Below are positions 4,640-34,528 of a stretch of DNA of 37,366 nt, piece by piece (positions within the stretch are counted from its first letter, which is position 1; each line of letters opens with the position of its first letter). Location: positions 1 to 37,366 of the forward strand of contig CAZKHP010000002.1 of assembly GCA_964552695.1 (NCBI GenBank), in the 5' to 3' direction. The position numbers and the translations under genes are program-made. Origin of the DNA: an uncultured Staphylococcaceae bacterium. Lineage in GTDB: Bacteria; Bacillota_I; Bacilli_A; RFN20; CAG-826. The notes under the pieces were generated by a model. The model ran no database searches. It was given only the letters and a program-made list of their open reading frames with translations, and was not told the DNA's origin.

Positions 4640-4665
4640 AATTACCTCTCGCTGAATTCCCCATA

Positions 4666-4694
4666 ATTTTATCATGGAAAAAAAACATTTTCAA
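4666..4694 (-). promoter_or_regulatory. Sigma-A-type promoter of the GGDEF/HD-GYP gene
   Basis: Minus strand: TTGAAA - 17 nt - TAAAAT, with a TG at the extended -10 position (TGATAAAAT). The -35 box lies in the 3' arm of the preceding terminator. Confidence 0.55.
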
Positions 4695-7810: not shown

Positions 7811-7822
7811 GATTTGTTCCTT

Positions 7823-9229
7823 CTATTTTTTCGTGGTTATAGCGGCTTTTTTAATCTTCAAACGAGTAGCTTTGAGACGGGCTTGTTCTTCCGCAATACG
7901 TTTGGCAGCAGCAGCCTTGGCGGCTTTGCGTTCGGCCTCCAATAATTTCTTTTTCTTTTGTTCTTCTTGAAGCAAACGTTTCTTTTCCAAGAGAGCTTCT
8001 TTGGCAAGGCGTGCTTTCTCTTTCTCTCGTTCTTTTTTCTCCAAAGCTCTTTGAATGGCCCGTTCCTTTTTCTCCAAAGCAAGGGCGATTTGACGCTCTT
8101 TTTCTTTTTCCTTGCGAATTCTCGCCTTTTCTTTTTCAATCTCACGCTTTTTCTGACGTTGAAGTTGCGCTTCGGTCATTTTGCGTAAAGCGACCGGCTT
8201 GTTTCCCATACGATCCATGAAACGATCGTCGGCGATATCGCGGTCCAAAATGGGTTTGACGAAACGGGGCGAAATTTGATACTTCGAAGCCTTCTTGTCA
8301 TCCAATTTGGCTTTTTCAGTTTTCAAGGTCAGATAGTTGCTCAGAATGAGCGTATAGATTTGGGTGAGGTATTCGTTATTGAAATCCATTTTTCTTTCTT
8401 TAACGGAATAGGTCACGCCTAAGGCGTCGTAACGACCGATGAAAAGCCAAAGCTGATACGCGGCACGATAGTCTGGGTTGCTGCGGATCATGTTGGTTTG
8501 AGAAATTTTACCAGAAACTGGAGGCGCTTTTTTTAAAGCTCTCATAAAAGGAGAGTTCACTAAGTATGTGACGCGTTGTCTTAATGTTTTTAAACGGGCA
8601 AGCAAGTCATCGTTAGCCGCCCTTTGTCCTTCATCGTCGCTGGGAACGACGAGTTTCATCTTGGTTTCAATCTCATATTTTGCTCCGCCGATGGGAACGA
8701 TGGCCTTGAGGGTCATCATGTCGCTGTCGGTGGTGTCGCCGTGTTCGTCAATGTAGCGATAACGCATTTCCACGAACAATGCCAACTTACGAATCAAGGT
8801 CATTACGAAACGGTTTTCGTAAATGGCCAATTCTTCTTCGACGAAGGTACCTAAAATCTTGTCAGGAATGACATCACCTTTGGCGTTGATTTCTTTAACA
8901 AGTTCACTATGCTGGGAAAGGTGTTGAATGGCTTTTGAACCGGTTTTTTTGGCCAATTCGACAGGAACGACGCTGTATTCTTCGCGAATGAATTGGCGTG
9001 GGTTTTTAACAATCCGTTCCAACGGGTGCAGAGAGTGTTCGACTTCGGAAATGAATTCGGCATCGAATCGTTTGCTTTCTTTCCGCATGATGCCACCGAT
9101 TTGGGTCTTGGGGGCAGCCTTTATTTCCTTCAACATGTGCGTAAAAGACTTATCACTCGACACAATCTTGTTGAGTCGTTTGTGATACTTCTTTTTCAGT
9201 TTGTCGACGGTCAATGCTTTGGTTGCCAT
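7823..9229 (-). CDS. Hypothetical soluble protein, partner of the McrB-like NTPase; ~330-aa globular region plus ~130-aa Lys/Glu/Ala/Arg-rich predicted coiled-coil tail
   Basis: 468-aa ORF sitting 11 nt downstream of the AAA+ gene and 12 nt upstream of sipW. No TM segment and no signal peptide. No PD-(D/E)xK motif recognisable by eye. The tail is QRQKKREIEKEKARIRKEKEKERQIALALEKKERAIQRALEKKEREKEKARLAKE... Confidence 0.7.
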   Translation of the reverse strand: MATKALTVDKLKKKYHKRLNKIVSSDKSFTHMLKEIKAAPKTQIGGIMRKESKRFDAEFISEVEHSLHPLERIVKNPRQFIREEYSVVPVELAKKTGSKAIQHLSQHSELVKEINAKGDVIPDKILGTFVEEELAIYENRFVMTLIRKLALFVEMRYRYIDEHGDTTDSDMMTLKAIVPIGGAKYEIETKMKLVVPSDDEGQRAANDDLLARLKTLRQRVTYLVNSPFMRALKKAPPVSGKISQTNMIRSNPDYRAAYQLWLFIGRYDALGVTYSVKERKMDFNNEYLTQIYTLILSNYLTLKTEKAKLDDKKASKYQISPRFVKPILDRDIADDRFMDRMGNKPVALRKMTEAQLQRQKKREIEKEKARIRKEKEKERQIALALEKKERAIQRALEKKEREKEKARLAKEALLEKKRLLQEEQKKKKLLEAERKAAKAAAAKRIAEEQARLKATRLKIKKAAITTKK

Positions 9230-9240
9230 AAAGTTCCTGA

Positions 9241-10761
9241 TTAACTCATCTTAATGTATTTTTCGAGCACGGTGCGCGATTGTTTAAAAGCGCCCTTACC
9301 GAAGAGTTTATCCAATTCGTTGAGCAATTGGTTCATTTCGTCGTGCAAGAAGGCTAAGTTTAACGTCACGAATTTTTTCAAAATCTTGCTTGAGAAAATG
9401 TAATCCATGGCTTCAATGTCGGTTCCTCCGCAGGCGACGTAGGTCGGAACGAAGATTTTCATTTGTTTGATGATACGGTTACCAAACGCGATATTGAATT
9501 TTCCAACGATGAATGCGTCGAGTTTTGCGAACTTATTCAGCAAATCCTCGGACATCGGATAATTCGTTCTGGCTTCTTGGAAAAGCTTATCGAGGTATTG
9601 GAAAGGAAGAGGCATGGATTCGGTGAATGGGCAGTCGAAGGCAACGCCTTTTCCGGAGAATTCAAGCGACATGGCACGGTCGTAGACTTTATCGGTAATG
9701 GTGAACGTGGAGTCATCGTTGTTGGCGGTACCGATGAACCAAAGGTTTTGCGGAATCAGAAGTTTGCCTTCGTTCAAGTGCTTCGGGTCTCCCGCTTCGG
9801 GTTTGTTAGAAATTTCGATTTTCCATTCGGCCACGTTCGGCATTTCCATGATGGACAAGAATTCGGCAAAGTAATATTCGATACGCGCTAAGTTCATTTC
9901 ATCGAGAATGATGAGGTTGTTGTCTTCGCGGTACGTAGCTTCATAAACAGCCTTCAAAAAGTCGGTTTCGTTGAATTTTTTAGAGAATTCGTTGTAATAA
10001 CCGATCAGTTCGCTGCGGTCACGCCACGACGGTTGAACCGAACAAATCTTCGTATCGTTTTGGAAGAATTTGCCTAAAGCGTAAGGTAAAGAAGTTTTAC
10101 CAGTACCGGAGATACCTTCGAGAATCAACAATTTCGAAGTTCCCATGCCGGCGAAGAAGGTACGAAGTGTTTTTTGATCGTAATACAGCTTCATTTGCGA
10201 AGCCGCAAAGTTGCGGAATTTGTTGACTAATTGATCCAGAGAAATATTGGCATCTGCTTCCAAAATCTCGACATGCGTGTTGTAGGTCGTGTATTTGAAA
10301 TCGACGGCTGAAAGTTTGGGAAAGCGGGAATTGGTGAAGTTCGCTTCGGATTCAGGTTTAGGTTGCCCTGGCGGAATTCCTAACGAACCTACTTTCAAGT
10401 TGAGAATTTCGTTTTTCTCCATGACGGCAGTGTAGAGTTGATCATTTAATTCTTGAACTTGTTTGACCAATTTTTGCCGATCCAGACGGCCGTTGTTATA
10501 GGCGATGAACCGTTTGATGACAAAGTAAGCCAAATAGATTAGGCCGCCCAAAAGTGCTAACCAAAGCAAATTGAAAAGGACAAAGAAAAACCAGCCCCAG
10601 AATCCAAATCCATTGATATAGGCATTCAAAATATCGCTGTAATTTCGGAAATTACCGGGAACGGAGCTCCAGGGAATGCCGAAGGTTTCCTTAAAAAACA
10701 GACCGAGATCTTTAAAGAATGCCTCAAATAATTCGCGAATGTAACTGAAGAAATCTTGCAT
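9241..10761 (-). CDS. Membrane-anchored McrB-family (AAA_5-type) AAA+ NTPase
   Basis: Hydrophobic segment GFGFWGWFFFVLFNLLWLALLGGLIYLAYFVI near the N-terminus, then a coiled-coil-like stretch. Walker A LILEGISGTGKTS, Walker B LIILDEMNLARIEYYFAEFLSIME, and a McrB-like signature WFIGTANNDDSTFTITDKVYDRA (compare IIGTMNTADRS...RRF in McrB). Confidence 0.78.
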   Translation of the reverse strand: MQDFFSYIRELFEAFFKDLGLFFKETFGIPWSSVPGNFRNYSDILNAYINGFGFWGWFFFVLFNLLWLALLGGLIYLAYFVIKRFIAYNNGRLDRQKLVKQVQELNDQLYTAVMEKNEILNLKVGSLGIPPGQPKPESEANFTNSRFPKLSAVDFKYTTYNTHVEILEADANISLDQLVNKFRNFAASQMKLYYDQKTLRTFFAGMGTSKLLILEGISGTGKTSLPYALGKFFQNDTKICSVQPSWRDRSELIGYYNEFSKKFNETDFLKAVYEATYREDNNLIILDEMNLARIEYYFAEFLSIMEMPNVAEWKIEISNKPEAGDPKHLNEGKLLIPQNLWFIGTANNDDSTFTITDKVYDRAMSLEFSGKGVAFDCPFTESMPLPFQYLDKLFQEARTNYPMSEDLLNKFAKLDAFIVGKFNIAFGNRIIKQMKIFVPTYVACGGTDIEAMDYIFSSKILKKFVTLNLAFLHDEMNQLLNELDKLFGKGAFKQSRTVLEKYIKMS

Positions 10762-10771
10762 TCATTTGCCC

Positions 10772-11872
10772 TCACTTTTTCAGGGCTATGGGCTCGTTGG
10801 GTGCCCGATAGCGACCGGTTAATCGAAGCGATAATAAGAAGCTGGCGCGTTCTACGAAATCGTTATTGTCGCGGTCCCACCCTTCGGAATAGACCGTAAC
10901 CACCATGCGTACCGGGGTGTTTTCGGGAAGATACGCAAGCGCGCTTCCGAGAAGTTCTTTGTCCGATAGTTCGGTTGTGGTTTTACTTGTTTCGCGTCCT
11001 AAGACAAGGCCGTTTTCGATGGAAGAATCCAAGTCGATGGGAAGAACGCTACCGTAGGTGGAAGCATTGAAGGTGGTCAAGGGTTCCGTGGCGGTTGCAC
11101 GACCGTTTTCGGAATATACGATTTTGCTTGGATCATCCATTTCCCCGAAGAGAATCTCACGATAAGCATCGATTTCACCGTTGAAATCATAGAAGCCATC
11201 TCGGGCAAGGATGTCGAGGCGCCCGGCAAAGAGTGTAGTCGATGCCGTGTCGGTGTTGGGTTCCCAGATATTAAACCCAAAGGGGGAAAGGAAGCTCACA
11301 CGCATGCTTTTGTGAACATTATTTAAAGCCTCTTCGTTTCCGGCAGGACTTTCAGCGTTCTTTGCACTGTCCGGAAGAAGGGTGGCACTATCATCGAGAT
11401 AGAGATACATATCCATGTTCGACTTGAAATAAAATTCAAATTGGAAGAATCCGGAGTTCGCGATGTTGGAATCCGTGGTGTTGTTATACGTGGTAAATCC
11501 TTCGCGGAGTACTGGCCGTAAGGTGGGGTCGGATAAATCGGTGGATTCATTCAACCAACGGCTTTGGAACATCGAAGAAACAGGGCTTAAGGTGCTCTCG
11601 GGGTTAAAATAGCCGTAATCTACGAGATTTTCTTCACTCAATTCATCAAAGAATTGAATATCTCCGGCATTTCCGAGTTCGGGGTGATTTTCAGGGACGA
11701 TCAGACCGATTTTTAAATCATCCGCTCCGCCATAAGTTACTTTGAACGTATCGAGGGTGACCGCATTGGCAGACGCAAACCAAGCAAAAGTTCCCGTGAT
11801 TAACCCGCTTAAAGCGAGTAAACCGACGACGGAATTGATGATGAGGTTTCTTTTGTTGCGAAGTGCGTTCAT
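10772..11872 (-). CDS. Secreted SipW-signal paralog P7 (366 aa), TasA/camelysin-like fibre-subunit candidate
   Basis: N-terminus MNALRNKRNLIINSVVGLLALSGLITGTFAWFASANAV. C-terminal block VTVYSEGWDRDN, a variant of the W-x-E-G-x-D motif. RBS AAAGGA. Confidence 0.7.
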   Translation of the reverse strand: MNALRNKRNLIINSVVGLLALSGLITGTFAWFASANAVTLDTFKVTYGGADDLKIGLIVPENHPELGNAGDIQFFDELSEENLVDYGYFNPESTLSPVSSMFQSRWLNESTDLSDPTLRPVLREGFTTYNNTTDSNIANSGFFQFEFYFKSNMDMYLYLDDSATLLPDSAKNAESPAGNEEALNNVHKSMRVSFLSPFGFNIWEPNTDTASTTLFAGRLDILARDGFYDFNGEIDAYREILFGEMDDPSKIVYSENGRATATEPLTTFNASTYGSVLPIDLDSSIENGLVLGRETSKTTTELSDKELLGSALAYLPENTPVRMVVTVYSEGWDRDNNDFVERASFLLSLRLTGRYRAPNEPIALKK

Positions 11873-11888
11873 CGGGAGGTCCTTTCTC

Positions 11889-12977
11889 TTATTTTTGGGA
11901 AACGAACTTTAAGTCGGCACCGAACGTGGCGGCGATGACCTGAGTGGTACATGCATGGTCCCAACCCTCGAGCCAAATGGTCATATTGATTTCCGCTACG
12001 CCCAGATCGTTGGTTGTGGCCAACGGAGTTCCAAGCGGGCTGTACTTTGATATGGGATTGTAGGTAGCGGTTTTGGGAATGGCATTGACCAGTGGAGAAG
12101 CCCACATAAAGCTTTGAGCTTCATAGAAATATTGGTTTTCTTTGTTCGGTTCAACATAGATTCCGCTGGGTGTGCCCCAATTGTCTTCGGTTAATTCGTT
12201 TTCGAATTCTCCATAGGCGATTTCGTAGTACTTTCCGGCAGCGTTCCAACTGGTGGTGTGATCGTAGATGCCGTTGCCATCGAAATCCATGCGTCCTCCG
12301 ACGTCGATGGACCCGGCTTCTTTGGCGGCCGGAGCAATGATGTCGGTGATTTCATCGGTTTGAATGCCCATGCGCAGAGCTTGGGTGACGTTTTTGGATC
12401 CGATGAAGCGCATGCCATAATCGAAATAGATGTGATAGCCAGCAACTCCTTGAGTATCGTCGTTGGGATTGTCTTGGCTGACACGTGCCATCCGGAACAG
12501 AAGCGAGAAGCCAACATAATTGGAGCGGTTGGCGACCGTATCGATGGGGCGTAACCGTCCCCCGTTAACCGGGGATGAAACGGAGTGCTCGTAAAGCGTG
12601 ATGTCGTCACCTTCCTGATAACTCCCGCTGGTCAAAGGAAGTACTGTATGATTCGCAGAGTATCCCTCGCGCGCGTATAAAAAATCGAACGTTTCGGGCT
12701 CAATCTCCGTATCCGTCCAATAAACATACCCTTCACCGGGTATGTTGTGCGTATCGGGCGTGAAATTATACCGATGCCGTTCTTCTTCGGTCAAAATATG
12801 GCTGACTCGGAAACCCATTTGGAGCGTATCGCCTTCGCCGCGTAAAGTGCCGCTGACGGTTGCGCCCGTGAGGTCTATGACCTCAAACCATGCAAAAGTC
12901 CCCGCGGTTACAGCCAGGGCGGAGATGATGAAAGAAGTCGCCATCAAGGCTATTTTGCTTTTATTTTGCATGATCAA
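11889..12977 (-). CDS. Secreted SipW-signal paralog P6 (362 aa), fibre-subunit candidate
   Basis: N-terminus ...KSKIALMATSFIISALAVTAGTFAWFEVIDL. C-terminal block MTIWLEGWDHAC. The track start is TTG 12977; an ATG lies two codons downstream at 12971. Confidence 0.7.
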   Translation of the reverse strand: MIMQNKSKIALMATSFIISALAVTAGTFAWFEVIDLTGATVSGTLRGEGDTLQMGFRVSHILTEEERHRYNFTPDTHNIPGEGYVYWTDTEIEPETFDFLYAREGYSANHTVLPLTSGSYQEGDDITLYEHSVSSPVNGGRLRPIDTVANRSNYVGFSLLFRMARVSQDNPNDDTQGVAGYHIYFDYGMRFIGSKNVTQALRMGIQTDEITDIIAPAAKEAGSIDVGGRMDFDGNGIYDHTTSWNAAGKYYEIAYGEFENELTEDNWGTPSGIYVEPNKENQYFYEAQSFMWASPLVNAIPKTATYNPISKYSPLGTPLATTNDLGVAEINMTIWLEGWDHACTTQVIAATFGADLKFVSQK

Positions 12978-12998
12978 TAAAATCCTTTGAAAAAGAAA

Positions 12999-13853
12999 TT
13001 AGGCTTCGCTGGTTTCGTCGAGAAGGGCAGAGATGACCATGCCGAAGAGCATGCTGGCTCCGACAGGAGGCAGGTAGGTGCAGTCGGGATCATCGCCTTC
13101 AAGCCAAATCACGATGGTGTAGCGGATAACGACATCCGGATCAAGATGCAGGTAATTGTAGTTCACGATATTGCTGGCAGATTCAAACACTTCCGCCCGG
13201 ACACTGTTCTCAGGCTTTGAGGCGCTGCAGGTATAGGGAGGAACGCTTAAACCATTTCCGACACACTCGCCATTGATGCGCGTGTTATTGTCATCGTAAA
13301 TTGCATAGTTCGTGGTTTTTGCAAAGGTGCGGTAATTGTGTGTGACTTCTTCACCCACGACATTTTCATAAAGACGCACACGGATGTATTCTTCGATAGG
13401 AACGGCACCCTCAATGATGTTTTCTCCCTGACTTAACGACAAGGTTGCCGAGAAGTCGACCGGAGCATTGCCTTGGTTCTTTAAAAAGAAGGTGTAGGCA
13501 AAATAGGTGGAATACATGAGGATGCCATCCTCATCATAAACATCTCCGTTATGCGATCCCAGACCATTGACATCGTCCAGGACTTCGTGCGCGGGTAAAT
13601 AATCAACTGATTCCGCACGGGCAGCGTCGAGGTTTGAGGCCCGAAGCAAACTCGTTTTTTTGGTAAAGTTCGCGTCCGTCGATATGGTGAGTGACGCGCG
13701 GTTCTGTTCAAGCTCAACGGTGTACCGACCGATATTGGTCCCCAGGTAGGAGATTATGACGAAAGTAGCAATGGTTAATGCGCTTGCGGCGGAAACGATT
13801 GCTGCGATTTTTCGTCTTTTCCTTGTTTGGGCGTACTCAGTTGGGTAGATCAT
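12999..13853 (-). CDS. Paralog P5 (284 aa) with a divergent N-terminus, probably uncleaved; membrane-anchor or base-subunit candidate
   Basis: First gene after riboswitch 1. The N-terminus is MIYPTEYAQTRKRRKIAAIVSAASALTIATFVIISYLG, with a basic stretch and a TM helix; ATFVII replaces GTFAWF. It retains the family C-terminal block IVIWLEGDDPDC and a camelysin-like FFLKNQGNAPVDF strand. Confidence 0.65.
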   Translation of the reverse strand: MIYPTEYAQTRKRRKIAAIVSAASALTIATFVIISYLGTNIGRYTVELEQNRASLTISTDANFTKKTSLLRASNLDAARAESVDYLPAHEVLDDVNGLGSHNGDVYDEDGILMYSTYFAYTFFLKNQGNAPVDFSATLSLSQGENIIEGAVPIEEYIRVRLYENVVGEEVTHNYRTFAKTTNYAIYDDNNTRINGECVGNGLSVPPYTCSASKPENSVRAEVFESASNIVNYNYLHLDPDVVIRYTIVIWLEGDDPDCTYLPPVGASMLFGMVISALLDETSEA

Positions 13854-14018
13854 GTGTCTTTACCTTTCGTTTTTCAACCACGAAAAGGAAGTTGTTGAAA
13901 ATGAAACTTTTGACAATGTGTGAATGCCCATTCGCCTGGCCGCCCCATTAAAGCGGCTCGGCGGGGAACCTTCACTAATTTCCCGAACGCAGTAGGCGTT
14001 TCGAGAAACCCCCTATTG

Positions 14019-14101
14019 AAATAAAAATAGATGCTAACCAATCATTGCCCGGAACTGGGAAGTACTACTCTCATTCCATTTTTGGCAACTGGCTACCATC
14101 T
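14019..14101 (-). terminator. Expression-platform terminator of riboswitch 1
   Basis: On the minus strand, AGAUGGUAGCCA-GUUGCC (the 3' part of the aptamer) can pair with GGCAAU-(GAU)-UGGUUAGCAUCU. That gives about 18 bp with one G-G mismatch and one 3-nt bulge. The 34-nt apical region has its own GGAAG/CUUCC hairpin. The stem is followed directly by AUUUUUAUUUC. Confidence 0.6.
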
Positions 14102-14162
14102 CTCGTTTGAGTTAGGCCCTATAGCTTTGCGTCGCTAAGTTTCCTTAGTTTTGCTATTGTCA
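14084..14162 (-). promoter_or_regulatory. c-di-GMP-I (GEMM-I) riboswitch aptamer, copy 1
   Basis: The minus-strand RNA is UGACAAUAGCAAAACUAAG-GAAA-CUUAGCGACGCAAAGCUAUAGGGCCUAACUCAAACGAGAGAUGGUAGCCAGUUGCC. It carries the GEMM-I hallmarks: GCAAA(A)C, a hairpin capped by a GAAA tetraloop, ACGCAAAGC, a CCUAAC...GAUGG segment resembling the 11-nt tetraloop receptor, and GGUAGC. By eye it aligns with the Vc2 aptamer. Confidence 0.82.
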
Positions 14163-14168
14163 ACATCC

Positions 14169-14196
14169 ATTATAGAGGTTTTTGCGTTTCTGTCAA
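14169..14196 (-). promoter_or_regulatory. Consensus sigma-A-type promoter driving riboswitch 1 and the ~9.5-kb operon
   Basis: Minus strand: TTGACA (14196..14191) - 16 nt - TATAAT (14174..14169). The aptamer starts within about 10 nt downstream. Confidence 0.75.
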
Positions 14197-14496
14197 CATT
14201 CTCGCCTTTTACACATCGTCTTTTTTGCTAGAAAAAATTTAAGAAAAGCCCTCGATTCAATCAATTTTATTAATATAACTATCACCATTTTTTGAATTTT
14301 TGAAGAAATTTTCATACTCCAAAAAAATTTTTCGAAAAATGTTTTTGGCAAAGGAAGATTCTCACAGGTTAATTGAATATGGTACCGCCGACGATGAAAG
14401 TTTTTTCATAAGCATGGGTGGCTTTCACGGAAGCGTCATGCGAGCTCTTTGGAACGCGCGCGAAGGATTGCTTTTTATTCCGATCAATTATAGGCA

Positions 14497-14538
14497 ATAA
14501 AAAAGCCTGTTCCAGCCTCATTAAAGGTCCAAACAGGC
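14497..14538 (-). terminator. Intrinsic terminator after the small membrane-protein gene
   Basis: Minus strand: GCCUGUU...AACAGGC stem followed by UUUUUUAUU. Confidence 0.65.
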
Positions 14539-14583
14539 ATTTTGTCGTATGGGTATATAAATAGTCTTATCGGAAGCGATAAA

Positions 14584-14970
14584 CTACTTTTTGGCTTCTT
14601 TAGCCTTAGCTTCTTCCATTTCCTTGAGAATCTCTTCGCGGGCTTGTCTTTTGGCTTCAGCAATAAGTTCTTCGTTCGAAAGCGTCGACTTTTTTGCTTT
14701 GTTTTCGTTGTAGAGCGTTTTGATCAGCAAATAGATGTTGAGGAAGAAAAGCGTAATCAACGGAAGGACGATCAGGATGAACATCCAAGCCGGGTTAGCT
14801 TGCAGCCAGGAGATGAACTTCATGAAGGCGCCAGCTTCGGCAGGGATGATGTTGGTGGCGAACATGGCGAACAAGGAGACTGTAAGCAAGAAAACGATGA
14901 CCACAATTTCAGCGACCACTAAAATGGTCGATAGCGACTTATTTTTTCCGGACAGTAATCCTTTACTCAT
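14584..14970 (-). CDS. Small two-TM membrane protein with a Lys/Glu-rich C-terminal tail
   Basis: 128-aa ORF with RBS AGGAGAATTAAAATG. Two hydrophobic helices, then the tail NEELIAEAKRQAREEILKEMEEAKAKEAKK. That tail resembles those of the SipW-like peptidase and the 468-aa protein. Confidence 0.7.
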   Translation of the reverse strand: MSKGLLSGKNKSLSTILVVAEIVVIVFLLTVSLFAMFATNIIPAEAGAFMKFISWLQANPAWMFILIVLPLITLFFLNIYLLIKTLYNENKAKKSTLSNEELIAEAKRQAREEILKEMEEAKAKEAKK

Positions 14971-15012
14971 TTTAATTCTCCTATATGAAAATATATCGCA
15001 TACAATATAACT

Positions 15013-15056
15013 AAAAAAAACTAGGGTGTCAACTGGATAAGCCAGTGAAACCCTAG
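15013..15056 (-). terminator. Strong intrinsic terminator after paralog P4
   Basis: Minus strand: CUAGGGUUUCACUGG-CUUAU-CCAGUUGACACCCUAG followed by eight U. Confidence 0.8.
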
Positions 15057-15088
15057 TAATTTTGTGGAAAATAGGCTATTTGACTAGA

Positions 15089-15997
15089 TTACGCAGCGAC
15101 ACCGTAGATGTCAATGCTGAAATCGAAGACTCCGCCGAGGGCGCCGCCACCAGCAGTGACGTTTTCGCATTCGGGATCTTCGCCTTCAATCCAGGCGCGG
15201 ATCGTGATGTCATCGGAGTAGTCGGGAGTGGCAGCGTCGGTACCATAGAGGGTAACGATCGGTTTGACGTGAGCGGCGGTGGCAAGAGCGGTCGTGGTGT
15301 AAGTGGTCAACGAACCGGCGTGGAAGTTGTCGGTATCATCGAAAGCAGCGGTTTGGGCGACCGAATCAAAACCAGAAACGGTTTTCCAAGTTTTGGCAGC
15401 ATCAGCTTTAACATATTTGTATGCGGCATCGTCAGCATCCGGTGTCCAAATGAAGACTGGGACGTTGGCTTCGTCAAGAATCGCAATGCGGGCGCAGTTA
15501 ACGGCCGCTTCATCTTGAGGATCATCCGCAGTGTGCGGGGTGATCGTGGTGGCTCCGCCAACATAGACGTTCATGTTGCCGGTAGCAACGGAACTTTGAG
15601 AAATCGTCAAGGTAAAGTCGACATAATATCCATCGGCAGCGCCAATACCCGAGGTAAGAAGGGTGGTCACGCTATCGGCCGTGGAAGAATCGGTATCAGC
15701 AGAGTTCCAAATGGGTTTGTAGAAGTTCGCACCATTACCGGAAATATCGGTAATTCTGTGAACGCCGGAAACGGAAATGTTTTGTTCGTCAGCGGATTGG
15801 TGGGCGACAGTGGTCAGTAAGCTGGATTTCCAAGCAACGGTCAAGTCAGATGAGCTCGAATAGACTTCGGCGGACGAATAGTTGATTTGAGCATTACGAA
15901 CGGTTGTGAACCAAGCGAACGTGGAAGCCGAGGCGGCAGCAGCTGTCAGAACGAGCATGCCGGCGGCACTAATTAAAATCTTATTCTTCTTATTCAT
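15089..15997 (-). CDS. Secreted SipW-signal paralog P4 (302 aa), monocistronic; major-subunit candidate
   Basis: N-terminus MNKKNKILISAAGMLVLTAAAASASTFAWFTTVRNA. Mature part is rich in Ala/Thr/Ser/Asp. C-terminal block IRAWIEGEDPEC. Very strong RBS GAGGAGGATTTTATTCATG, with its own promoter and terminator. Confidence 0.75.
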   Translation of the reverse strand: MNKKNKILISAAGMLVLTAAAASASTFAWFTTVRNAQINYSSAEVYSSSSDLTVAWKSSLLTTVAHQSADEQNISVSGVHRITDISGNGANFYKPIWNSADTDSSTADSVTTLLTSGIGAADGYYVDFTLTISQSSVATGNMNVYVGGATTITPHTADDPQDEAAVNCARIAILDEANVPVFIWTPDADDAAYKYVKADAAKTWKTVSGFDSVAQTAAFDDTDNFHAGSLTTYTTTALATAAHVKPIVTLYGTDAATPDYSDDITIRAWIEGEDPECENVTAGGGALGGVFDFSIDIYGVAA

Positions 15998-16138
15998 GAA
16001 TAAAATCCTCCTCTGGATTACCCTTTCATTATTGAAGGGTTCATGCTGTCAAAGTTAATGGGACTTTGACATAATTAACGGGCAATTTCGCTAATTATTG
16101 CAATACTCGAGGGGGCGAGATTGTTAATAAGCAATTAC

Positions 16139-16167
16139 ATTATATATCGGTCTTTTAAAAAGTGCAA
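16139..16167 (-). promoter_or_regulatory. Sigma-A-type promoter of paralog P4
   Basis: Minus strand: TTGCAC - 17 nt - TATAAT. The ~135-nt leader contains two clean hairpins (GUCAAAGU...ACUUUGAC and ACCCUUC...GAAAGGGU). No GEMM-like motif is present. Confidence 0.6.
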
Positions 16168-16321
16168 GTTTTTTGTTTTTTGTTAAAAAGCACTTATTTA
16201 ATCGATACTTTTTCCAAATTTTGTTTTGAATTTTAGATTGTTTGGCTTATTTGATTGTCCACTATTTTCTTACAAATTTCATACAACCCATGGACTTTAT
16301 TCTATACTTATACACACGTGT

Positions 16322-16353
16322 GCGAAAAAAGAAAAAGGATCCCGGAAGGATCC
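16322..16353 (-). terminator. Intrinsic terminator ending the riboswitch-2 operon
   Basis: Minus strand: GGAUCC-UUCCG-GGAUCC followed by UUUUUCUUUUUU. It starts about 30 nt after the stop at 16385. Confidence 0.75.
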
Positions 16354-16384
16354 AAAAAAGTTTGTTAGACAAGTGTCCAAAGAT

Positions 16385-17227
16385 TTAAGAGATATTGACT
16401 GACAACTCGGTGATTGAGAATGAGAGATTTTTATAGACATTGGATGTTCCTTCGACATCGGAAAAGTAATAATCATGACCGCTACTGGTATAAGAATAGG
16501 AATAATACGTTGATGGTGCATTGCTGAATTCGATCGTAAAAAAGAAAATGATTTTATCCGCTGGAACTTCATCAAAATCGAGAACATCTTGCGCGAGGGT
16601 AATGTTGGAAGGTCCGGATGCAGCTGTTTGATTGAAACGATCGGTTTGACTGGTCGATGTCACAAACGCATTGGCTCCGGTTGTAATGCTGCCGCTATTG
16701 CCATCGATCGCCGTGGAATAAACATTGATTGCCTGCGCGAGGTTAATCGGGGTATTGGTGGTTGCGTTGTAGAACGTCGTGGACGGAACCGCAACGTAGT
16801 CGGTGAGCCTTAAAAACACGGTTTTATCAATAGCAAAATCGCCGGTCACTTCCAAAGCATAGGTAAATCGAAGACTGGGGTATTGCGCATTGATGATGAC
16901 GGTTTGAATGCCGTTCAGATAGGGATCTTCGCTGATTGGCAGGAATTGCGTATCGTAATTGTCGACCGTGACGATATCCGAAGGACTAAGAGCAACTTCT
17001 GGGCTTTGGTACCCATTGGGCGTTCCGTTGGAACCATAGTTCTTGGTGAAGTATTTGAGTTCGTAGGAAATATCGCCGGAGGCTTGAACGGTCATGGCGG
17101 TCACCCCGGCCTCCCGTTTAAACGAAAACCAGGCATAGGTCAAGTATAAAAAGGATGTCAAAGAAATCGCCGCCGACAACGTGGTGATCACCAAATTGAT
17201 CTTCAGTTTTTTCGATGTCAATGCCAT
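16385..17227 (-). CDS. Secreted SipW-signal paralog P3 (280 aa)
   Basis: N-terminus MALTSKKLKINLVITTLSAAISLTSFLYLTYAWFSFKRE. It lacks the W-x-E-G-x-D block. It starts 2 nt after the stop of the 759-aa gene. Confidence 0.68.
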   Translation of the reverse strand: MALTSKKLKINLVITTLSAAISLTSFLYLTYAWFSFKREAGVTAMTVQASGDISYELKYFTKNYGSNGTPNGYQSPEVALSPSDIVTVDNYDTQFLPISEDPYLNGIQTVIINAQYPSLRFTYALEVTGDFAIDKTVFLRLTDYVAVPSTTFYNATTNTPINLAQAINVYSTAIDGNSGSITTGANAFVTSTSQTDRFNQTAASGPSNITLAQDVLDFDEVPADKIIFFFTIEFSNAPSTYYSYSYTSSGHDYYFSDVEGTSNVYKNLSFSITELSVNIS

Positions 17228-17229
17228 CG

Positions 17230-19509
17230 TTAGAATCCCGCCAAAACGGCCTGCTGATAATCCGTTGTATTAGTTAGAGGGAAGCTCGTTGAGTTCGTAT
17301 AAAGACCGTGAACGTAAGTGTAAAGCGGATTGCTGCTGAGTTCGCGGTAAAACCGATAGACGGTTCCGGAGGTGTTTTGGTTGTAGTTGGAAACGTTGAG
17401 TTGGACTTTGACGTTGCTGGCTTCGTTCCACGCCACATACGTTCCACTGACAAAGTCAGTGCTGCGATTCGGGAGCGAATATAAATAGTCGATATTAGAG
17501 GTTTGCGAGGACACGTCGCCGTCTTTGGACGTGAAACGGATGTCCATGCGGATGATGTTCAATTCGAAAGCGTCCGCCGTAAAATTGTCATAATTGAAAC
17601 GAACTGTGTCACTTGTATCATTGTCTGTTGCAACCGGCGTATTTTTCCCAACCCCGATGGCAATCAACGGAAAATAGTTTGAAGCGGACCAGAAACTGGA
17701 AGAAGTATTCACGGTAAAGGAGAGGGTTTCGCTGCGTAAAACGCCGCTGGTTGTTCCCGCACCTTGGGTTTTGACGACGGGATGCTGACTGGGATCGTAA
17801 ATCAAAACGTTATCTTGATAGGAAGTTCCTAAGTTCGTCCAGTGATCATCGTAGACAAGGTCATATTTTGTGTTGTTGTTTTCAGAAAGGTTAGGATTGT
17901 AACGATTATAGAGAATTTGAAAGTTGTTGCTTGTCGAAGTGCTGTTGGCAATAAAATCCATCGTCACCGAGATTTCATACGTCGTTGAAGTTCGGGTAAA
18001 CCGACGGACGGAAGAGTTGGTGGTATTCAGCCACAACCAAAGGCCATTTCGCATGGTAGCATCGCGTCCAAACCAGTCGTAGGTATACCAGAAAAGGAAG
18101 CGGTAACGCAGGTACTCTTCACGGGTTCCGACGCCCAAAGGGCTGGTAATCCGTTGAACATAATAGGTATCTGTTCCGCCACCGGGATTGGTGTAAGAGA
18201 CATGGGTATTGGCTAAGTTAGGGTAGAACCGGGTCAAGGAGGCTTCGGTAGAGGTTAAACCATAGGCGGTTGTGGCAGAAATGGCGCGGTTGTATTGGGT
18301 GGTGTAGTTTACAATCGGGTTATTACCTTCATAAACTGAGTAAGAAGTTCCGTCGAGGCCGTTGGCCGGAATGATTTCGTTGAAATCCAACAAGGTTTGG
18401 TCCATGTTCGCGCCGGAATCATCCAAAGGGTTATCGGTGCGGGCGTATCCAATCAAGATACTATACGAACGGGCATTTCGGCCATTGACGGTTATTTTGC
18501 CATTGGATGTTCCGGAAGCATTGGCCCCATACATTCCCAAAAAGGAAGCCGAGCCGTCCAAGTGGCCGACAAACAAGCCGACATAAGTACCGTGGGGATA
18601 CGTCGTATTATGAACGCATTTAAACCACCCGGGGTTGACCGTGGAGCTTCCGACTTCGACCGTGCCGTTGCCTTTAACGTTGATTTGCCAACGTTCCAAG
18701 GTGTACGAGATGATTTGATTGTTATAAAGGGCAAAAACCCGCGCAATTAATGAGACCGGATAGAGCGTTGTTGGTTTTGAGGTATTCGGTTGTCCACAAG
18801 TCCAAACTCCTGAACTCGATTCATAAAGAAGACTCGTATTGGTGCTTTGGTAGACGATGGTGTAACTGGCGTTGTCAGTTCCGGTGACTGTGGTTCTTGG
18901 CACAGTAAAGCGAGCCGGCGTAGCATTGGTAAACGTCAGGTTTCCGATATTGGTCCCTGCAGTGTTGAGTATGGAGTACATAGGGTGAGCACTGGGGGCC
19001 GAAACAGCAGTTCCCACGGTGTTTGCCGTAACGTTGACGGTCGGTGTTTGTAAAACGAGATTCCGAATGGATCCTCCCAAAGCGACATAGCCGAACATAC
19101 CGATATCGTCAGTATTAGCCCCGTTAACCACAAGATTGGTTATTTTATAACCATATCCGTCAAACTGACTGTAGAACGGATAATCTTCATTGCCGATAGG
19201 AACCAACGCATCCCCCGAATAGGTGATATCGCTAGTCATGCGGAAATACGTCGAGCTGCTGAAAACACCTAGAACGTTGAGTTTCTGAAGGGTTCTTAAA
19301 TCGCCCGAATTGCTGATGAGGAAAGGGGCCGTTGACGTTCCTGAACCGCCACTGGTAAACATACTGCTGATGTTGACGGTGTTCGCGTCAATCGGTAATT
19401 CATATTGGTTGGCGTTCAAATAGGCGGCATAGCTAAAAGCCGCTACCGAAACCGCGCCGGTTGCCAACGAGAGGATAAGAATTGCCGAATACAGCGTCGT
19501 TTTTTTCAT
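17230..19509 (-). CDS. Large secreted paralog P2 (759 aa); tip-adhesin candidate with a beta-helix-like N-terminal module
   Basis: N-terminus MKKTTLYSAILILSLATGAVSVAAFSYAAYLNA, a variant of the family motif. It is followed by PFLISNSGDLRTLQKL...FRMTSDITY...PIGNEDYPFYSQFDGYGYKITNLVV...DIGMFGYV..GGSIRNLVL. This pattern opens many GLUG-type/parallel-beta-helix surface proteins. The remainder is rich in Asn/Ser/Thr/Tyr. RBS AAAGGAG. Confidence 0.68.
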   Translation of the reverse strand: MKKTTLYSAILILSLATGAVSVAAFSYAAYLNANQYELPIDANTVNISSMFTSGGSGTSTAPFLISNSGDLRTLQKLNVLGVFSSSTYFRMTSDITYSGDALVPIGNEDYPFYSQFDGYGYKITNLVVNGANTDDIGMFGYVALGGSIRNLVLQTPTVNVTANTVGTAVSAPSAHPMYSILNTAGTNIGNLTFTNATPARFTVPRTTVTGTDNASYTIVYQSTNTSLLYESSSGVWTCGQPNTSKPTTLYPVSLIARVFALYNNQIISYTLERWQINVKGNGTVEVGSSTVNPGWFKCVHNTTYPHGTYVGLFVGHLDGSASFLGMYGANASGTSNGKITVNGRNARSYSILIGYARTDNPLDDSGANMDQTLLDFNEIIPANGLDGTSYSVYEGNNPIVNYTTQYNRAISATTAYGLTSTEASLTRFYPNLANTHVSYTNPGGGTDTYYVQRITSPLGVGTREEYLRYRFLFWYTYDWFGRDATMRNGLWLWLNTTNSSVRRFTRTSTTYEISVTMDFIANSTSTSNNFQILYNRYNPNLSENNNTKYDLVYDDHWTNLGTSYQDNVLIYDPSQHPVVKTQGAGTTSGVLRSETLSFTVNTSSSFWSASNYFPLIAIGVGKNTPVATDNDTSDTVRFNYDNFTADAFELNIIRMDIRFTSKDGDVSSQTSNIDYLYSLPNRSTDFVSGTYVAWNEASNVKVQLNVSNYNQNTSGTVYRFYRELSSNPLYTYVHGLYTNSTSFPLTNTTDYQQAVLAGF

Positions 19510-19521
19510 GGCGTCTCCTTT

Positions 19522-20409
19522 CTATGCGTAAATGGGTGAGTTGGAATACGAAATGTTCAAGTTGAAATCGATACCGAAACGAAGTGGATAGCTTAAAAGC
19601 GTTGGATTAGCCCGAACGAAGGACTGGAATAAGGCTCCATCCATGCTTAATTCGATCATGAGGCTGGTTGCAAAAACAAAGTTCCCGGAAACTTTGGTCG
19701 CGAATTTGGGAATGAAGGATTGATTGGCCAACCCGGTTGTATTCGTCACGGGAGAACCGGAAAGATCACTGGCATCGAAAAGGGTAATACCACTGGTTCG
19801 TTGCCCGGAGGTTCTAAAGAAACTTGCCAGAGTTTTCGCTTCCAAAGCCGGAATTTGCGAAGGGAAAGCCGAAACCATCGGGCTTGAAGGACTATTGTCA
19901 ACTGCCACATAACGGTAATTGAAAGGGTAAGCCGTTGAAAAATTGAGCTCGCTGGACGTTGCGGTGGGAATGGAGACATATTGCATATTGGCAGTCACAT
20001 AACCATAACGGTCGGGTTGGATGAAACGAAGTTCGAGATAATAAGTCGGTAACCCCGGAACGTAATAAGCGTTTTCGTTGTAATAAGCTCGCGTCAAAAG
20101 GTAATCGGTTGCAAGAGCATTTGAAAAGTCAACATTCACTTGGCCGTTGGTCAGTGAGCTTTGGGTAACGTTCAATCGATCGGTTTGATCGACATAATAA
20201 GCTACTTCGGAAGTACTGGGAGTTTCGCCATAGCGCCGTTCATAAATGTGGGCTTCGATGGTTACTTCGGAATTTCCCGTTGAAAGAGCCACCATGTTGG
20301 TGACGGAGCGACTGTATTTGATCCACGCAAAAGTAGCGCTTGTTAATGCAAGTGCACTGGCCACAAGGGCAATGGTGGTTGTCATAATCAGTTTGCTTTG
20401 TGGTTTCAT
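19522..20409 (-). CDS. Secreted SipW-signal paralog P1 (295 aa), first gene after riboswitch 2
   Basis: N-terminus MKPQSKLIMTTTIALVASALALTSATFAWIKYSRS. The RBS AAGAGG lies immediately after the riboswitch terminator U-tract. Confidence 0.68.
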   Translation of the reverse strand: MKPQSKLIMTTTIALVASALALTSATFAWIKYSRSVTNMVALSTGNSEVTIEAHIYERRYGETPSTSEVAYYVDQTDRLNVTQSSLTNGQVNVDFSNALATDYLLTRAYYNENAYYVPGLPTYYLELRFIQPDRYGYVTANMQYVSIPTATSSELNFSTAYPFNYRYVAVDNSPSSPMVSAFPSQIPALEAKTLASFFRTSGQRTSGITLFDASDLSGSPVTNTTGLANQSFIPKFATKVSGNFVFATSLMIELSMDGALFQSFVRANPTLLSYPLRFGIDFNLNISYSNSPIYA

Positions 20410-20422: not shown

Positions 20423-20467
20423 AAATAAAAAAGCAGCCGCTACCATTCACTTAGGCAACTGGCTACC
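20423..20467 (-). terminator. Expression-platform terminator of riboswitch 2
   Basis: Minus strand: GGUAGCC(A)GUUGCC-UAAGUGAAU-GGUAGCGGCUGCU, about 13 bp with one bulged A, followed by UUUUUAUUU. The 5' arm is the 3' end of the aptamer. Confidence 0.75.
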
Positions 20468-20532
20468 TCTTAATCTTTGGAGGCCCTTTAGCTTTGCGTC
20501 GCTAGATTACTCTAGGTTTGCTATTTACTAAC
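20454..20532 (-). promoter_or_regulatory. c-di-GMP-I (GEMM-I) riboswitch aptamer, copy 2
   Basis: The minus-strand RNA is GUUAGUAAAUAGCAAACCUAGA-GUAA-UCUAGCGACGCAAAGCUAAAGGGCCUCCAAAGAUUAAGAGGUAGCCAGUUGCC. It has the same conserved blocks as copy 1: AAUAGCAAA, CGACGCAAAGCUA, AGGGCCU and GGUAGCCAGUUGCC. The first hairpin shows compensatory changes (CUAGA/UCUAG here vs CUAAG/CUUAG in copy 1). Confidence 0.82.
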
Positions 20533-20535: not shown

Positions 20536-20564
20536 ATTATATAGATGCGATATAAAGTTGTCAA
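20536..20564 (-). promoter_or_regulatory. Consensus sigma-A-type promoter driving riboswitch 2
   Basis: Minus strand: TTGACA (20564..20559) - 17 nt - TATAAT (20541..20536). The -35 box lies 5 nt after the stop codon of the upstream 1000-aa signalling gene. Confidence 0.75.
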
Positions 20565-20569: not shown

Positions 20570-23500
20570 CTACTTGCCCCCGCCCACGAATTTCAGGAAG
20601 TCCGAAATAGACATTGGCTTGGCAAAATAGAAGCCTTGCACCATGCGAATATTGAGCCGTTTCACGATGTTCGCTTGATCTTCGGTTTCGATTCCTTCGA
20701 TGATGATGTTGTTGTTCATTTCCCGGATTTTCGCGCGCAAATGGTCAAAGCTTAAGAAAGCCGAGCTGTCGCTTTCAATCCCGCGGACAAGGTCTCTCTC
20801 GAACTTTACACAGTTGAAAGGGAGCGAAGCGGCAATTTGGAAATCAAGCACTCGATCGGTATAGTTATCAAGACAGAAAACAATGTTATTTCCTTGCAAA
20901 TCCTTCATGAATTTGCGAGTTTCGTTTTCTTTTTCGGCGACGGTTTTTTCTGAAATTTCAAGTTGCAAGAACCCTTTTGGAAACTTGTAACGAGAAACGA
21001 TTTGTTTGACAGCTTCGCGGAATCCGGAATCGAGCACCGAATCGGTTGAGACGTTGACTGCAAGGCGTTCTACGCCATTTTGTCGGAATAGATCAAAACC
21101 GTAGTTTTTCCACATTTCCCCGACATTGTATAGAAGTGCCTTTTCGATATCGACAAGAAGATGGGCTTCACTGGCAGTTGCCAAAAATTCACTCGTTGAA
21201 ATATATCCGCGGTTTGGATCATAAAGACGGGAAACGAGTTCTCCTCCGACGGGTTCGGTATTGTTGATGTTCATGATGGGGTTGATGTAAATTTCAAACT
21301 TCTGCTTTGTGACCGCTTCGCGGATCAGGTCAAGCACATAACCTTTCCGTTCGGCTTTACGTGTCTTTTTATTGTCTGCGACATACATCATGTCGTTGCC
21401 GGCTTTTTGGGTACTCTTAAAACCGGCCGTCAGCATGGCTTCAATTGCCGCAGCATCGCGGACATCGCCGGGGTATGCGGCAATCGTCATCCAGAAATGA
21501 GGACTCTTAGGATCATTTCCTCCGATTTCTCTTGCGGTCGCATAAATGGATTCAGCCATTGAGAAAGCGGCGGCGCGCGTTGCTTCAGGGAAAGAGACGA
21601 AAAGCGTATTTCCGCTATAGCGATAAATGAAGTCGCCAAAACTGGCGTTTTCAAGTTTTCGGCAGAGTAAGTTCAATGTTGCGGACATGACTTCATCGGG
21701 CTCGAAAGAGACCGTGGGAGGAACATTGCATAAAGAAATCGAGAATAGGTATCCGTTACGGTCATCGCTAACAGCATTTTGAACATCCAGCTCCAGGCGT
21801 CTTCGATTTTTAATCGAAAAGTCCATATCCAAATAGCGTGGTTCGGTTTCCGCTAACGCCGCTCTTAAGGGGCGAATGGAGATGGCGGTTTCGTGAGAGT
21901 TGGCGGAAAAATTCATCAAGGAACGTAAGAAAGGCAAAGGTGAAATCAAAGGCATCGGAATTTCTTTGGAACCCACTTTCAAGGGGCAATTCGGACAGAT
22001 TGAATCACGGTTATGAAAAACCTTATAACAACGCTCGCCGAGTGTCTTTTGCGATTTATAGAAGGAAGCCAAGTTTGAAGAAAGATAGTTTAATGAAAAA
22101 GTGTTTTTGTCGATGACATAAACATAACGTTCATCCATTTTCAAAACATGCTCGAGCAGTTCATTCTTGCTTCGCTCGTAGTCAGAATGGACAACTTCCT
22201 TTATAAAGGTACCCAATAATGCACCGGCGAAATTCAAAATGGTTTGTTCACTCACGGTCAGAGAACGGTTTTTCTGGCTGGAGCAAAAGTAAACAAGGCC
22301 ATAGGTTCGCTCTTTATTGCCGATGACTTGGAAATGGAATGTTTTGATATCGAGATTGGTCAAAATTTTCCCAAGGCTGATAGGATAGGAATCAACATCG
22401 GATCCATAAACTGCTCCGGAAGCATCTACGGCCGCAAAGATGGGTTGAAGGTCATCAAAAGTAATGCGTTTGAGTTTTTGGAAGGTCGGATGTTCATGGA
22501 GACGGCAATCTTCGAAGCCTACCCGAAATTCGTCTAGCGAAGCATCCAAAAGCAAGTAACCAGCATTATGAAAACCAAACTGACTGGAAATTTTGAGAAG
22601 GTTTTGCCGAATAAATTTGTCGAAACTATCTTTGTTTTGCACATTTTTGGCTTCGAGAATCAAAGCTTCGGCGTTGAGCAAAAACAAACGGCCGACGCTT
22701 TCGAAAGTTTCACGATGGGAAATATCACTTTGCCGAATTGCGGGAAGGTAAATGAAGTAGTCCTTACTTTTCTCAAGGGCGAAAAGCGCGTCTCTTTCAA
22801 GGTCACGCCGGGTTGTGTAAGGATAAATAGCGCCACCGATACGGATTTGAGCAACTTCCATTCCTTTTCGGTTCTTTTCAACTTTCGTCGGAACAAAGTG
22901 AATGTAGAAATTTTCGATTTTTGCCTTCAATAAACTTAAGGAATTGACTTTGGGTAAAAACAAGGCAATCGTGTTCGGAAGGTATTCACCGATGACCCCT
23001 TCTTCAAAATATTCGCGCAATCCTTTAACGAGTTCGCCCATAAAAGGCTGAATATCAGGGTTCAAAATCCGAATCAAAATAAACGCGGAACGATAGGACG
23101 CGTTGGCTTGTGAAAGGAAGAAGACGGCTTGATTATATTCGCCTTTGGATAGCAGTCCGCCGGCCTTGATTCTTTTTTCAACTTCTTCCGGAATCGGTTC
23201 GCCGCTGATCGTGGGTTCCAGTTTGCTGTAACGTTCCAAAAGTTCGTTAACGTCATTTTCCAAAACAGCGAGCTCTTCAATGTTCTTATTGCCATCTTTT
23301 GGTTTTTCGGCGAGCGTTAAGCCATAATAAAGTTTGGTGGAAATTCCCGCCAAACCCTTGTTAATGGCCGAGTTGATGGTCATCACATGGCGGTAAATCA
23401 AAAAACCAAAAAGTCCATTTAGAACCAATGTCAAGATGAGTAAGCCCACCAAAAGGAAAGCATTGTTAATTGTAAAATAGTTTATGACAATGGCGGCCGA

Positions 23501-23578: not shown

Positions 23579-23730
23579 AGATTTTCTTTCTTTTTCTTTA
23601 TTTATTATATTACATCGGTCTTGAACCAAAAGAAGAAACCTGCAAAATTTAGGCTTTTCCGCTTTTTTGCTCACGAACTCATAGATTTTCTACCATGGAT
23701 GAAAGGTATGCGTGATAAAATACAATCATC

Positions 23731-31782: not shown

Positions 31783-31872
31783 ATCACTCAGGATGAACGC
31801 GGCCAGGGAACGCCGCCAAAATAGTGCCGAGTCGATCAAACATTCATTTCGAAAGGAGAAAAACAAATCGAT

Positions 31873-34515: not shown

Positions 34516-34528
34516 ACGGAGGTATTGT

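Follow-up and report, generated by a model that had tools for sequence, protein, structure and literature searches.

Seven candidate fibre subunits with SipW-class signal peptides in a CoCoPALM-like locus with two c-di-GMP riboswitches

We analysed a stretch of 37,366 nucleotides from an uncultured Staphylococcaceae bacterium (GenBank assembly GCA_964552695.1, contig CAZKHP010000002.1, positions 1 to 37,366 of the forward strand), referred to below as the window. Seven head-to-tail open reading frames (ORFs) on its minus strand, P1 to P7, occupy positions 10772-20409 and are followed by an McrBC-derived gene set that fits the system named CoCoPALM. We consider it probable, if well short of certain, that P1 to P7 are the secreted structural proteins of a multi-subunit surface fibre that is induced by cyclic di-guanosine monophosphate (c-di-GMP) and processed by the SipW-type signal peptidase of the same locus. 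The genes, promoters and RNA elements of the locus given below all lie on the minus strand.

The seven proteins are united by their N-termini. Motifs were counted over the 140 ORFs of at least 60 amino acids (aa) in the window, and T[FY]AW[FI] was found in five of them: P1 (19522-20409; 295 aa; TFAWI at residues 26-30), P3 (16385-17227; 280 aa; TYAWF at residues 30-34), P4 (15089-15997; 302 aa; TFAWF at residues 26-30), P6 (11889-12977; 362 aa; TFAWF at residues 27-31) and P7 (10772-11872; 366 aa; TFAWF at residues 28-32). The motif thus starts at residues 26-30 in each, and composition-preserving shuffles of the seven proteins gave a mean of 0.0015 matching proteins. In the large protein P2 (17230-19509; 759 aa) a relaxed form, SYAAY, is found at residue 26. 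A basic n-region and a hydrophobic h-region precede, in all seven, a conserved end of the type [ST]-[FY]-A-[WA]-[FIY], of which P5 (12999-13853; 284 aa) has a variant. A word-indexed search collected 63 homologues of P4 and 43 of P6, and TFAWF was invariant across 60 P4 homologues.

The arrangement of a basic n-region, a hydrophobic h-region and small residues at positions -3 and -1 (T-x-A) is shared with signal peptides that depend on SipW. Profile alignment with hhalign paired the TsTfAWF of the P4 family with GGTWAAF of TasA, and 15 of 60 P4 orthologues matched the model TIGR04088 (cognate_SipW) weakly (best E 0.0029). The label of one homologue at JGI begins 'predicted ribosomally synthesized' and is truncated; we take it to be an annotation derived from TIGR04088. 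Together with the peptidase gene in the operon, the motif supports the assignment of P1 to P7 to the SipW-dependent class. A first-pass annotation, made by a model from the sequence, had proposed this class, and its N- and C-terminal strings were all present verbatim in the seven minus-strand ORFs. It did not mention the peptidase gene, the decisive argument for the class, nor the riboswitches and the McrBC-like pair. One detail of its alignment did not hold: it had set ATFVI of P5 against TFAWF, which is out of register because the N-terminus of P5 is a distinct conserved type. A cytoplasmic extension of 10-35 residues leads to KRKKR (RKRRK in P5 itself) and then to FV[IV]ISYLG[YT]xxG instead of TFAWF. 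In each related locus covering that part, a single gene was seen to have this N-terminus, and it is the first one behind the second of two riboswitches described below (for example L002 12739-13989, L005 11874-13031 and L012 11689-12888); in most lineages its product is homologous to P6 over the full length. The P5-type N-terminus could be an uncleaved signal anchor, forming the base of a fibre, or it could be cut at T-V-G/E-Y (cut at the slash).

Three genes after P7 encode the putative processing and energy-coupling functions. The first product is a membrane-anchored McrB-like AAA+ GTPase (9241-10761; 506 aa), the second an McrC-like partner of the DUF2357 type (7823-9229; 468 aa), and the third a signal peptidase I of the SipW/archaeal type (7001-7810; 269 aa; Peptidase_S26) with an extended C-terminal transmembrane (TM) segment and a charged tail. 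The peptidase matched NF046067 (E 1.4e-18) and, marginally, TIGR02228 (51.9 bits; cutoff 51.85). It belongs to the same operon, and none of the 14 distinct related loci covering this part lacked an orthologue.

In the GTPase, an N-terminal TM segment is followed by a coiled coil and the GTPase domain. The hydrophobic segment, at about residues 53-85, and the heptad-like charged helix after it were kept in 12 orthologues. Residues 191-381 matched E. coli McrB chains (E 2e-5), and further matches were obtained to the McrB model NF008457 (E 1.2e-4) and to the PADLOC model PDC-M26A (2e-42), the latter being the only PADLOC match in the locus. GISGTGKTS, LDEMNLARIEYYF and GTANNDDST, corresponding to Walker A, Walker B and the signature region, were invariant in the orthologues. 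The sequence G-T-A-N-N-D-D-S-T can be read as N-x-D plus a second D, as in the NxD clade of Bell et al., or as N-x-x-D. An FtsB-related signal was limited to a weak match to FtsL (E 0.048) in a single orthologue (L027). No protein of the locus gave stronger E-values to its orthologues than the GTPase.

The McrC-like protein of the window had no direct Pfam match. Its orthologues in loci L001 (31.9 bits) and L005 (28.5 bits) exceeded the Pfam cutoff of 23.3 for DUF2357, which is the N-domain of McrC. In all 11 family members K, E, R, Q and A make up 66-83% of the last 130 residues, in keeping with a coiled coil. Searches for a nuclease domain in the McrC-like protein detected none. The census of McrBC systems by Bell et al. 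(eLife 2024; PMC11090510) names CoCoPALM in a few sentences and defers its analysis to a future paper. As defined there, it consists of an McrB-like GTPase with an FtsB-like TM segment and a coiled coil, a coiled-coil McrC homologue and a gene of the signal peptidase family, and the authors set the clade apart as linked to pilus assembly (PMC11090510). Positions 7001-10761 of the window fit this description: the GTPase has a TM segment and a coiled coil, the DUF2357 homologue has a coiled coil, and a signal peptidase gene is adjacent. The published description contains no subunit genes, regulation or mechanism, whereas the window adds the subunit family, two riboswitches, an EAL gene, a PNP_UDP_1 gene and the gene of a small TM protein. 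We found no follow-up paper on CoCoPALM in the searchable literature, the supplementary text files of the CoCoNuT paper were without CoCoPALM content, and literature on SipW with McrB, or on SipW with a c-di-GMP riboswitch, yielded no description of such a locus. The signal class and the name CoCoPALM were already known; the subunit family, its two motifs, the control by riboswitches and the fixed coupling to an McrBC-derived GTPase are undescribed in the searchable literature.

The coupling of secreted proteins and GTPase was consistent. We compared 27 locus records from metagenome-assembled genomes and metagenomes, among which 14 distinct loci cover the region (L001, L002/L017, L005/L006, L010, L012, L013, L018, L019 and L022-L027). 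The GTPase/DUF2357 pair was linked to subunit genes in all 14, and all kept, as far as they extend, the order major subunit, TM protein, riboswitch, P5-P7-like genes, McrB-like gene, DUF2357 gene, SipW gene, EAL gene and PNP_UDP_1 gene. This order held even where the subunits were only 23-25% identical, including distant representatives of the P4 family. The TM protein of this series is, in the window, a 128-aa membrane protein with a K/E-rich tail (14584-14970), which lies between P4 and the second riboswitch and, with a gap of 730 bp, separates P4 from P5. It was kept in every related locus covering its region and, with 32% identity over 76 aa in blastp (E 0.001), resembles the SipW-like protein in its C-terminal TM segment and charged tail, so that it may serve the peptidase as an accessory subunit.

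Both main transcription units of the locus are headed by a promoter and a riboswitch. Promoter 1 (20536-20564), of the sigma-70 type TTGACA-17-TATAAT, matches the consensus at 12 of 12 positions and lies directly upstream of a c-di-GMP-I aptamer (20451-20532; RF01051, 57.1 bits) in the leader of P1-P2-P3. Promoter 2 (14169-14196; TTGACA/TATAAT, likewise sigma-70-type and 12/12) directly precedes a second aptamer (14081-14165; 67.1 bits) in the leader of P5-P6-P7 and the CoCoPALM genes. Both aptamers are full-length, lie on the coding strand and score well above the RF01051 gathering score of 35. The distance between aptamer 1 and the start codon of P1 is short, about 41 nt, which suggests that this riboswitch acts by translational control. 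Twelve more RF01051 matches were found at equivalent positions in the seven related loci scanned, all of which had them. Both positions recur in L001, L002, L005, L012 and L013, and the second also in the distant loci L024 and L025. A hairpin followed by a T-run (16337-16353), resembling a terminator, lies 3' of P3, and P4 would form a transcription unit of its own.

Genes of c-di-GMP metabolism accompany the locus. A protein with an EAL domain, resembling c-di-GMP phosphodiesterases, is encoded at 5458-7032, and its counterpart directly follows the SipW gene in those related loci that reach that far. The next gene there, as in the window (4733-5458), encodes a nucleoside-phosphorylase-like protein of the PNP_UDP_1 family. 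On its other side the locus is flanked by a large membrane protein with an EAL domain (20570-23674, minus strand; 1034 aa), and an equivalent EAL gene of about 1000 aa flanks related loci. A 5TM-PAS-GGDEF-HD protein is encoded near the locus at 2624-4675.

The first-pass annotation had described the seven proteins as one paralogue family, and this was borne out for some of them. Pairwise BLASTP among the seven was tried as a family test and set aside as insufficient, with only matches of E≥1e-3 confined to the termini. By hhalign, full-length homology within the set was limited to P4, P6 and P7 (96-99%): P6 and P7 aligned at 99.1% over 316 columns, and a broad P4 family of 129 sequences aligned with the P6/P7 family of 41 over the full length (98.2%, E 4.5e-14, 279 columns). 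Narrow profiles of about 11-30 orthologues derived from the loci had linked only P6 and P7, and the link between P4 and P6 emerged only with the broad profile. P5 aligned to the P4 and P6 families solely through 25-39 C-terminal columns (36-81% probability), which contain the block described below. P1 aligned to the P4 family over residues 1-37 only (95%), P3 over residues 7-64 against residues 2-61 of P4 only (90%), and P2 shared nothing beyond the signal with the other families. When the signal was removed, the profiles of P1, P2 and P3 aligned to none of the others. The similarity of P1 and P3 to the P4 family runs 10-30 residues past the predicted cut. These profiles indicate that P4, P6 and P7, and probably P5, form one true family, and that P1, P2 and P3 are not members of it but further proteins that have in common with it the signal and 10-30 residues at the start of the mature chain.

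The family is large. The first-pass annotation had suggested a profile search of databases, and when the P4 profile was run exhaustively with HMMER we counted 2,490 representatives of 50% identity clusters at E≤1e-3 and 551 at E≤1e-10. None of P1 to P7 matched a model of Pfam, NCBIfam or PADLOC; the P4-type family is without a model in Pfam and NCBIfam, and the entries displayed or looked up gave it no name. The P4-type gene is single in the window, whereas several related genomes have two to three copies of it that lie in tandem and have diverged (L002 9010-11795, L013 5051-8473 and L011 8913-11777), which is reminiscent of the amplification and antigenic diversification of major pilin and flagellin genes.

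P2 stands apart in size and in its relationships. Its orthologues were conserved at E 1e-119 or better, and its family profile matched residues 50-130 to PDB entry 3n6z, a 'putative immunoglobulin A1 protease' (E 5e-7). The match covers a conserved G-G-x-G-T-S-x-x-P-Y-x-I and some 70 residues after it; the other 600 or so residues yielded no Pfam domain.

A second signature lies near the C-terminus. W.EG.D was found in the window only in P4 (WIEGED, 269-274), P5 (WLEGDD, 250-255) and P6 (WLEGWD, 335-340), 28-35 residues from the C-terminus, and relaxing the pattern to [WY].EG.D added P7 (YSEGWD, 328-333). Among 60 close homologues of P4, W269, E271 and G272 were invariant and the D was present in 59. 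Across the 129 broad representatives, W was found in 127, E in 126, G in all, D in 69 and C in 47; in the 41 members of the P6/P7 family E-G-W-D was invariant and C present in nine. The block had been proposed as W-x-E-G-x-D-x-x-C. Its first part holds for P4 to P7 in the form [WY]-x-E-G, which is the universal core in these alignments; the D is frequent in the close P4 homologues and less so in the broad set, and the cysteine is not a conserved part. A disulfide at this cysteine, one of the functions suggested for the block, is therefore unlikely, and we rejected it. The conserved E-G(-x-D) is possibly an acidic site for a metal or other cation, or the edge of a groove.

AlphaFold2 monomer models of P4 (pLDDT 81.5) and P6 (pLDDT 83.5) are both all-beta. 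In each, the penultimate beta-strand ends with the core of the block, and a loop leads on to the last strand, the two strands spanning 261-271 and 291-301 in P4 and 327-337 and 350-361 in P6; the terminal strand that the first-pass annotation had placed after the block is thus also predicted by the models. The all-beta body was modelled with confidence, and segments of low confidence lie around and after the predicted cut (residues 19-43 in P4; 19-32 and 44-46 in P6). This is as expected in a monomer for a strand that is not complemented by its own subunit.

We propose the following model. SipW would cut after T-[FY]-A and expose an N-terminus of the form W-[FY]-x-x-x-R... that is common to P1, P3, P4, P6 and P7. 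This N-terminus would act as a donor strand and insert into the next subunit, as do residues 28-38 of TasA and the 'Trp-clamp' strand of AbpX, and the E-G(-x-D) block would line the acceptor groove or bind a cation. P4 would be the major subunit because it has its own transcription unit, occurs in tandem copies elsewhere and belongs to the largest family. P1, P2 and P3 may form a tip module in which P1 and P3 are candidate minor subunits and P2, with its IgA1-protease-like N-domain, is the candidate adhesin. P5-type proteins, with their basic cytoplasmic extension and FVIISYLG, may be the membrane-proximal base, and P6 and P7 would be paralogous subunits. The GTPase/DUF2357 pair, SipW and the small membrane protein could constitute a membrane platform for the energy-dependent export, ordering or anchoring of subunits.

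It is also conceivable, and here our doubts outweigh our confidence, that CoCoPALM as such is a GTP-powered pathway of fibre biogenesis. In it, a membrane-bound McrB-type AAA+ hexamer with a nuclease-less McrC-like plug would cooperate with the small membrane protein and a peptidase of the SipW type. Together they would process and order subunits that carry [ST]-[FY]-A-W-[FY] and [WY]-x-E-G and assemble them, or else anchor or retract them.

Several points weigh against a fibre. Polymerisation is deduced from genes and monomer models, and cleavage after T-[FY]-A from the motif; the roles of individual subunits and of the GTPase, drawn from gene order and analogy, are held less firmly than the fibre itself. 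We know of no TasA-type or chaperone-usher fibre that needs a nucleoside triphosphatase (NTPase), and the GTPase may therefore serve something other than the fibre. None of P1 to P7 matched TIGR04088 at E≤1, and P4 profiles retrieved only chance matches among PDB sequences (for example antibody chains and ribonucleotide reductase). The models of P4 and P6 had no significant structural match to a pilin or to a protein of the TasA superfamily. Other comparisons with TasA belong here as well, and they bear equally on the proposal that P1 to P7 are true, highly divergent members of the TasA/camelysin family (Peptidase_M73) in an elaborate tapA-sipW-tasA operon with the GTPase as an unrelated neighbour. 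The SipW-class signals and the SipW gene in the operon would agree with this, as would the great sequence divergence of the TasA superfamily (bioRxiv 10.64898/2026.01.04.697558), and the TasA fibre (8aur_A) was the best PDB match of the P4 model in Foldseek, with 205 aligned columns. That match was weak, however (E 0.018, probability 0.63, TM-scores 0.26/0.32, root-mean-square deviation 11 Å); it was followed by chaperone-usher pilins (weak matches to CS20, FimF/FimA and a PapD complex, not significant), and the P6 model yielded nothing significant in PDB and BFVD and no match to TasA. At the sequence level, no match to Peptidase_M73 (PF12389) was obtained with P1 to P7 at E≤1 and one of 60 P4 orthologues matched at E 0.16. 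Against an alignment of 46 retrieved TasA/CalY sequences, hhalign aligned the P4-family profile (129 sequences) by the signal only (10.4% over 40 N-terminal columns) and likewise the P6/P7-family profile (41 sequences; 15.5% over 35 columns). All seven family profiles reached at most 38%, over N-terminal segments or 9-residue stretches only, and a single TasA sequence had a probability of 4.9% with the P4 profile. The GTPase pair in 14 of 14 covering loci is not a chance neighbour. We therefore regard this proposal as unlikely. The profile comparison that the first-pass annotation had suggested aligned nothing but the signal, and its reading of the proteins as divergent TasA-like jelly-roll subunits did not survive as a statement of family membership: membership of P1 to P7 in the TasA/camelysin family is not supported by sequence, and a very distant relationship of P4-type proteins to the TasA superfamily, as the P4 model might hint, is unproven.

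P1 to P7 might instead be secreted or surface-bound without polymerising, as adhesins, matrix proteins or an S-layer-like coat, with the shared N-terminus serving the peptidase as a recognition element only. That neither structure nor sequence linked the proteins to a known filament subunit would fit this reading, as would the resemblance of P2 to an IgA1-protease-like surface protein and the non-fibre roles of SipW in B. subtilis (cited in PMC9674648). However, the similarity of P1, P3, P4, P6 and P7 runs 10-30 residues past the cut, which a recognition element does not need, and one abundant small subunit with several minor ones and one large one is a layout typical of fibres. The tandem amplification of P4-type genes in other loci and the conserved control by c-di-GMP riboswitches, which suits appendages for adhesion and biofilm formation, likewise speak for the fibre, and we judge non-polymerising proteins to be improbable. 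Finally, the locus might be a conflict or defence system derived from McrBC, with the secreted proteins as effectors, decoys or receptors. The PNP_UDP_1 fold serves as an effector in some nucleotide-signalling defence systems, and a gene of this family is constant in the locus; the GTPase matches the PADLOC candidate PDC-M26A as well as McrB, and its partner is of the DUF2357 type. Against this, the McrC-like protein has no detected nuclease domain, the GTPase has a TM segment and a coiled coil where a DNA-binding domain would be, the operon is under c-di-GMP riboswitches and includes a signal peptidase, nothing besides the GTPase matched in PADLOC, and the census of McrBC systems sets the clade apart as linked to pilus assembly (PMC11090510). 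We consider a defence function very improbable.

The proposed fibre resembles known systems in part. With TasA/TapA/SipW of B. subtilis and CalY/camelysin of B. cereus it shares a signal end of the type G/S-T-x-A-x-F and an operon that encodes a dedicated peptidase of the SipW type. Residues 28-38 of TasA, which begin right behind the SipW cut, are its donor strand, and the segment is also present in TapA (PMC9674648); the window proteins likewise have a post-cut N-terminal segment in common between accessory and major subunits, and the mature domains of P4 and P6 are, by the models, all-beta as in TasA. In contrast, these mature domains have no detectable sequence homology to TasA, seven subunit genes stand against two, control is by c-di-GMP riboswitches rather than SinR, and an EAL protein, a small membrane protein and the GTPase/DUF2357 pair are obligatory parts of loci of the window type. 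The [WY]-x-E-G block is found where TasA has F-x-F-E-A-T-Q.

The archaeal AbpA/AbpX bundling pili and tafi (TafA/C/E) are comparable in their co-located signal peptidase I and their composition of several subunits, which is established for haloarchaeal tafi (PMC11821415, PMC12337348). In AbpX a conserved aromatic residue, the W2 'Trp clamp', opens the donor strand, and acidic residues at the groove bind Ca2+ (bioRxiv 10.64898/2026.01.04.697558); the mature N-terminus of the window proteins would similarly open with a conserved aromatic donor strand. Loci of the TasA superfamily often include tip adhesins, anchors and c-di-GMP enzymes (bioRxiv 10.64898/2026.01.04.697558). Unlike the window proteins, haloarchaeal tafi use the Tat pathway; AbpA/AbpX and tafi have no sequence or significant fold match to P1 to P7, and none has been reported with an McrBC-like GTPase. 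The operon logic of major and minor subunits with a large tip adhesin recalls the chaperone-usher and type V pili of Gram-negative bacteria, whereas the host of the window is inferred to be of a monoderm Bacilli lineage and no chaperone or usher was detected.

Elsewhere in the window, a region on the plus strand (28702-36007), across which the GC content climbs from about 0.44 to 0.53, encodes three further proteins. One of 1026 aa matches GH149 beta-1,3-glucan phosphorylase weakly and in part, a surface protein of 880 aa contains an Ig-like domain and two CBM_4_9 modules, and the N-terminus of the third (503 aa) resembles that of a lipoprotein.

If P1 to P7 do form a fibre, the missing cargo of CoCoPALM would be identified as an unannotated family of about 2,490 clusters at 50% identity, with the two c-di-GMP riboswitches as a regulatory handle on its expression. 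The principle of SipW and TasA, in which a peptidase exposes a donor strand, would extend to subunits unrelated in sequence, and the locus would provide a testable case of an McrBC-type GTPase re-used outside nucleic acid restriction. It would then have to be asked why such fibres, unlike known donor-strand fibres, keep an NTPase. For the annotation of these genes in metagenomes two motifs suffice: [ST]-[FY]-A-W-[FY] near the N-terminus (residues 25-30) and, some 30 residues before the C-terminal end, [WY]-x-E-G. Should fibre biogenesis be powered by GTP, the locus would represent a new class of filament machinery, apart from the type IV, sortase, chaperone-usher, type V and TasA systems, and an exaptation of a restriction motor.

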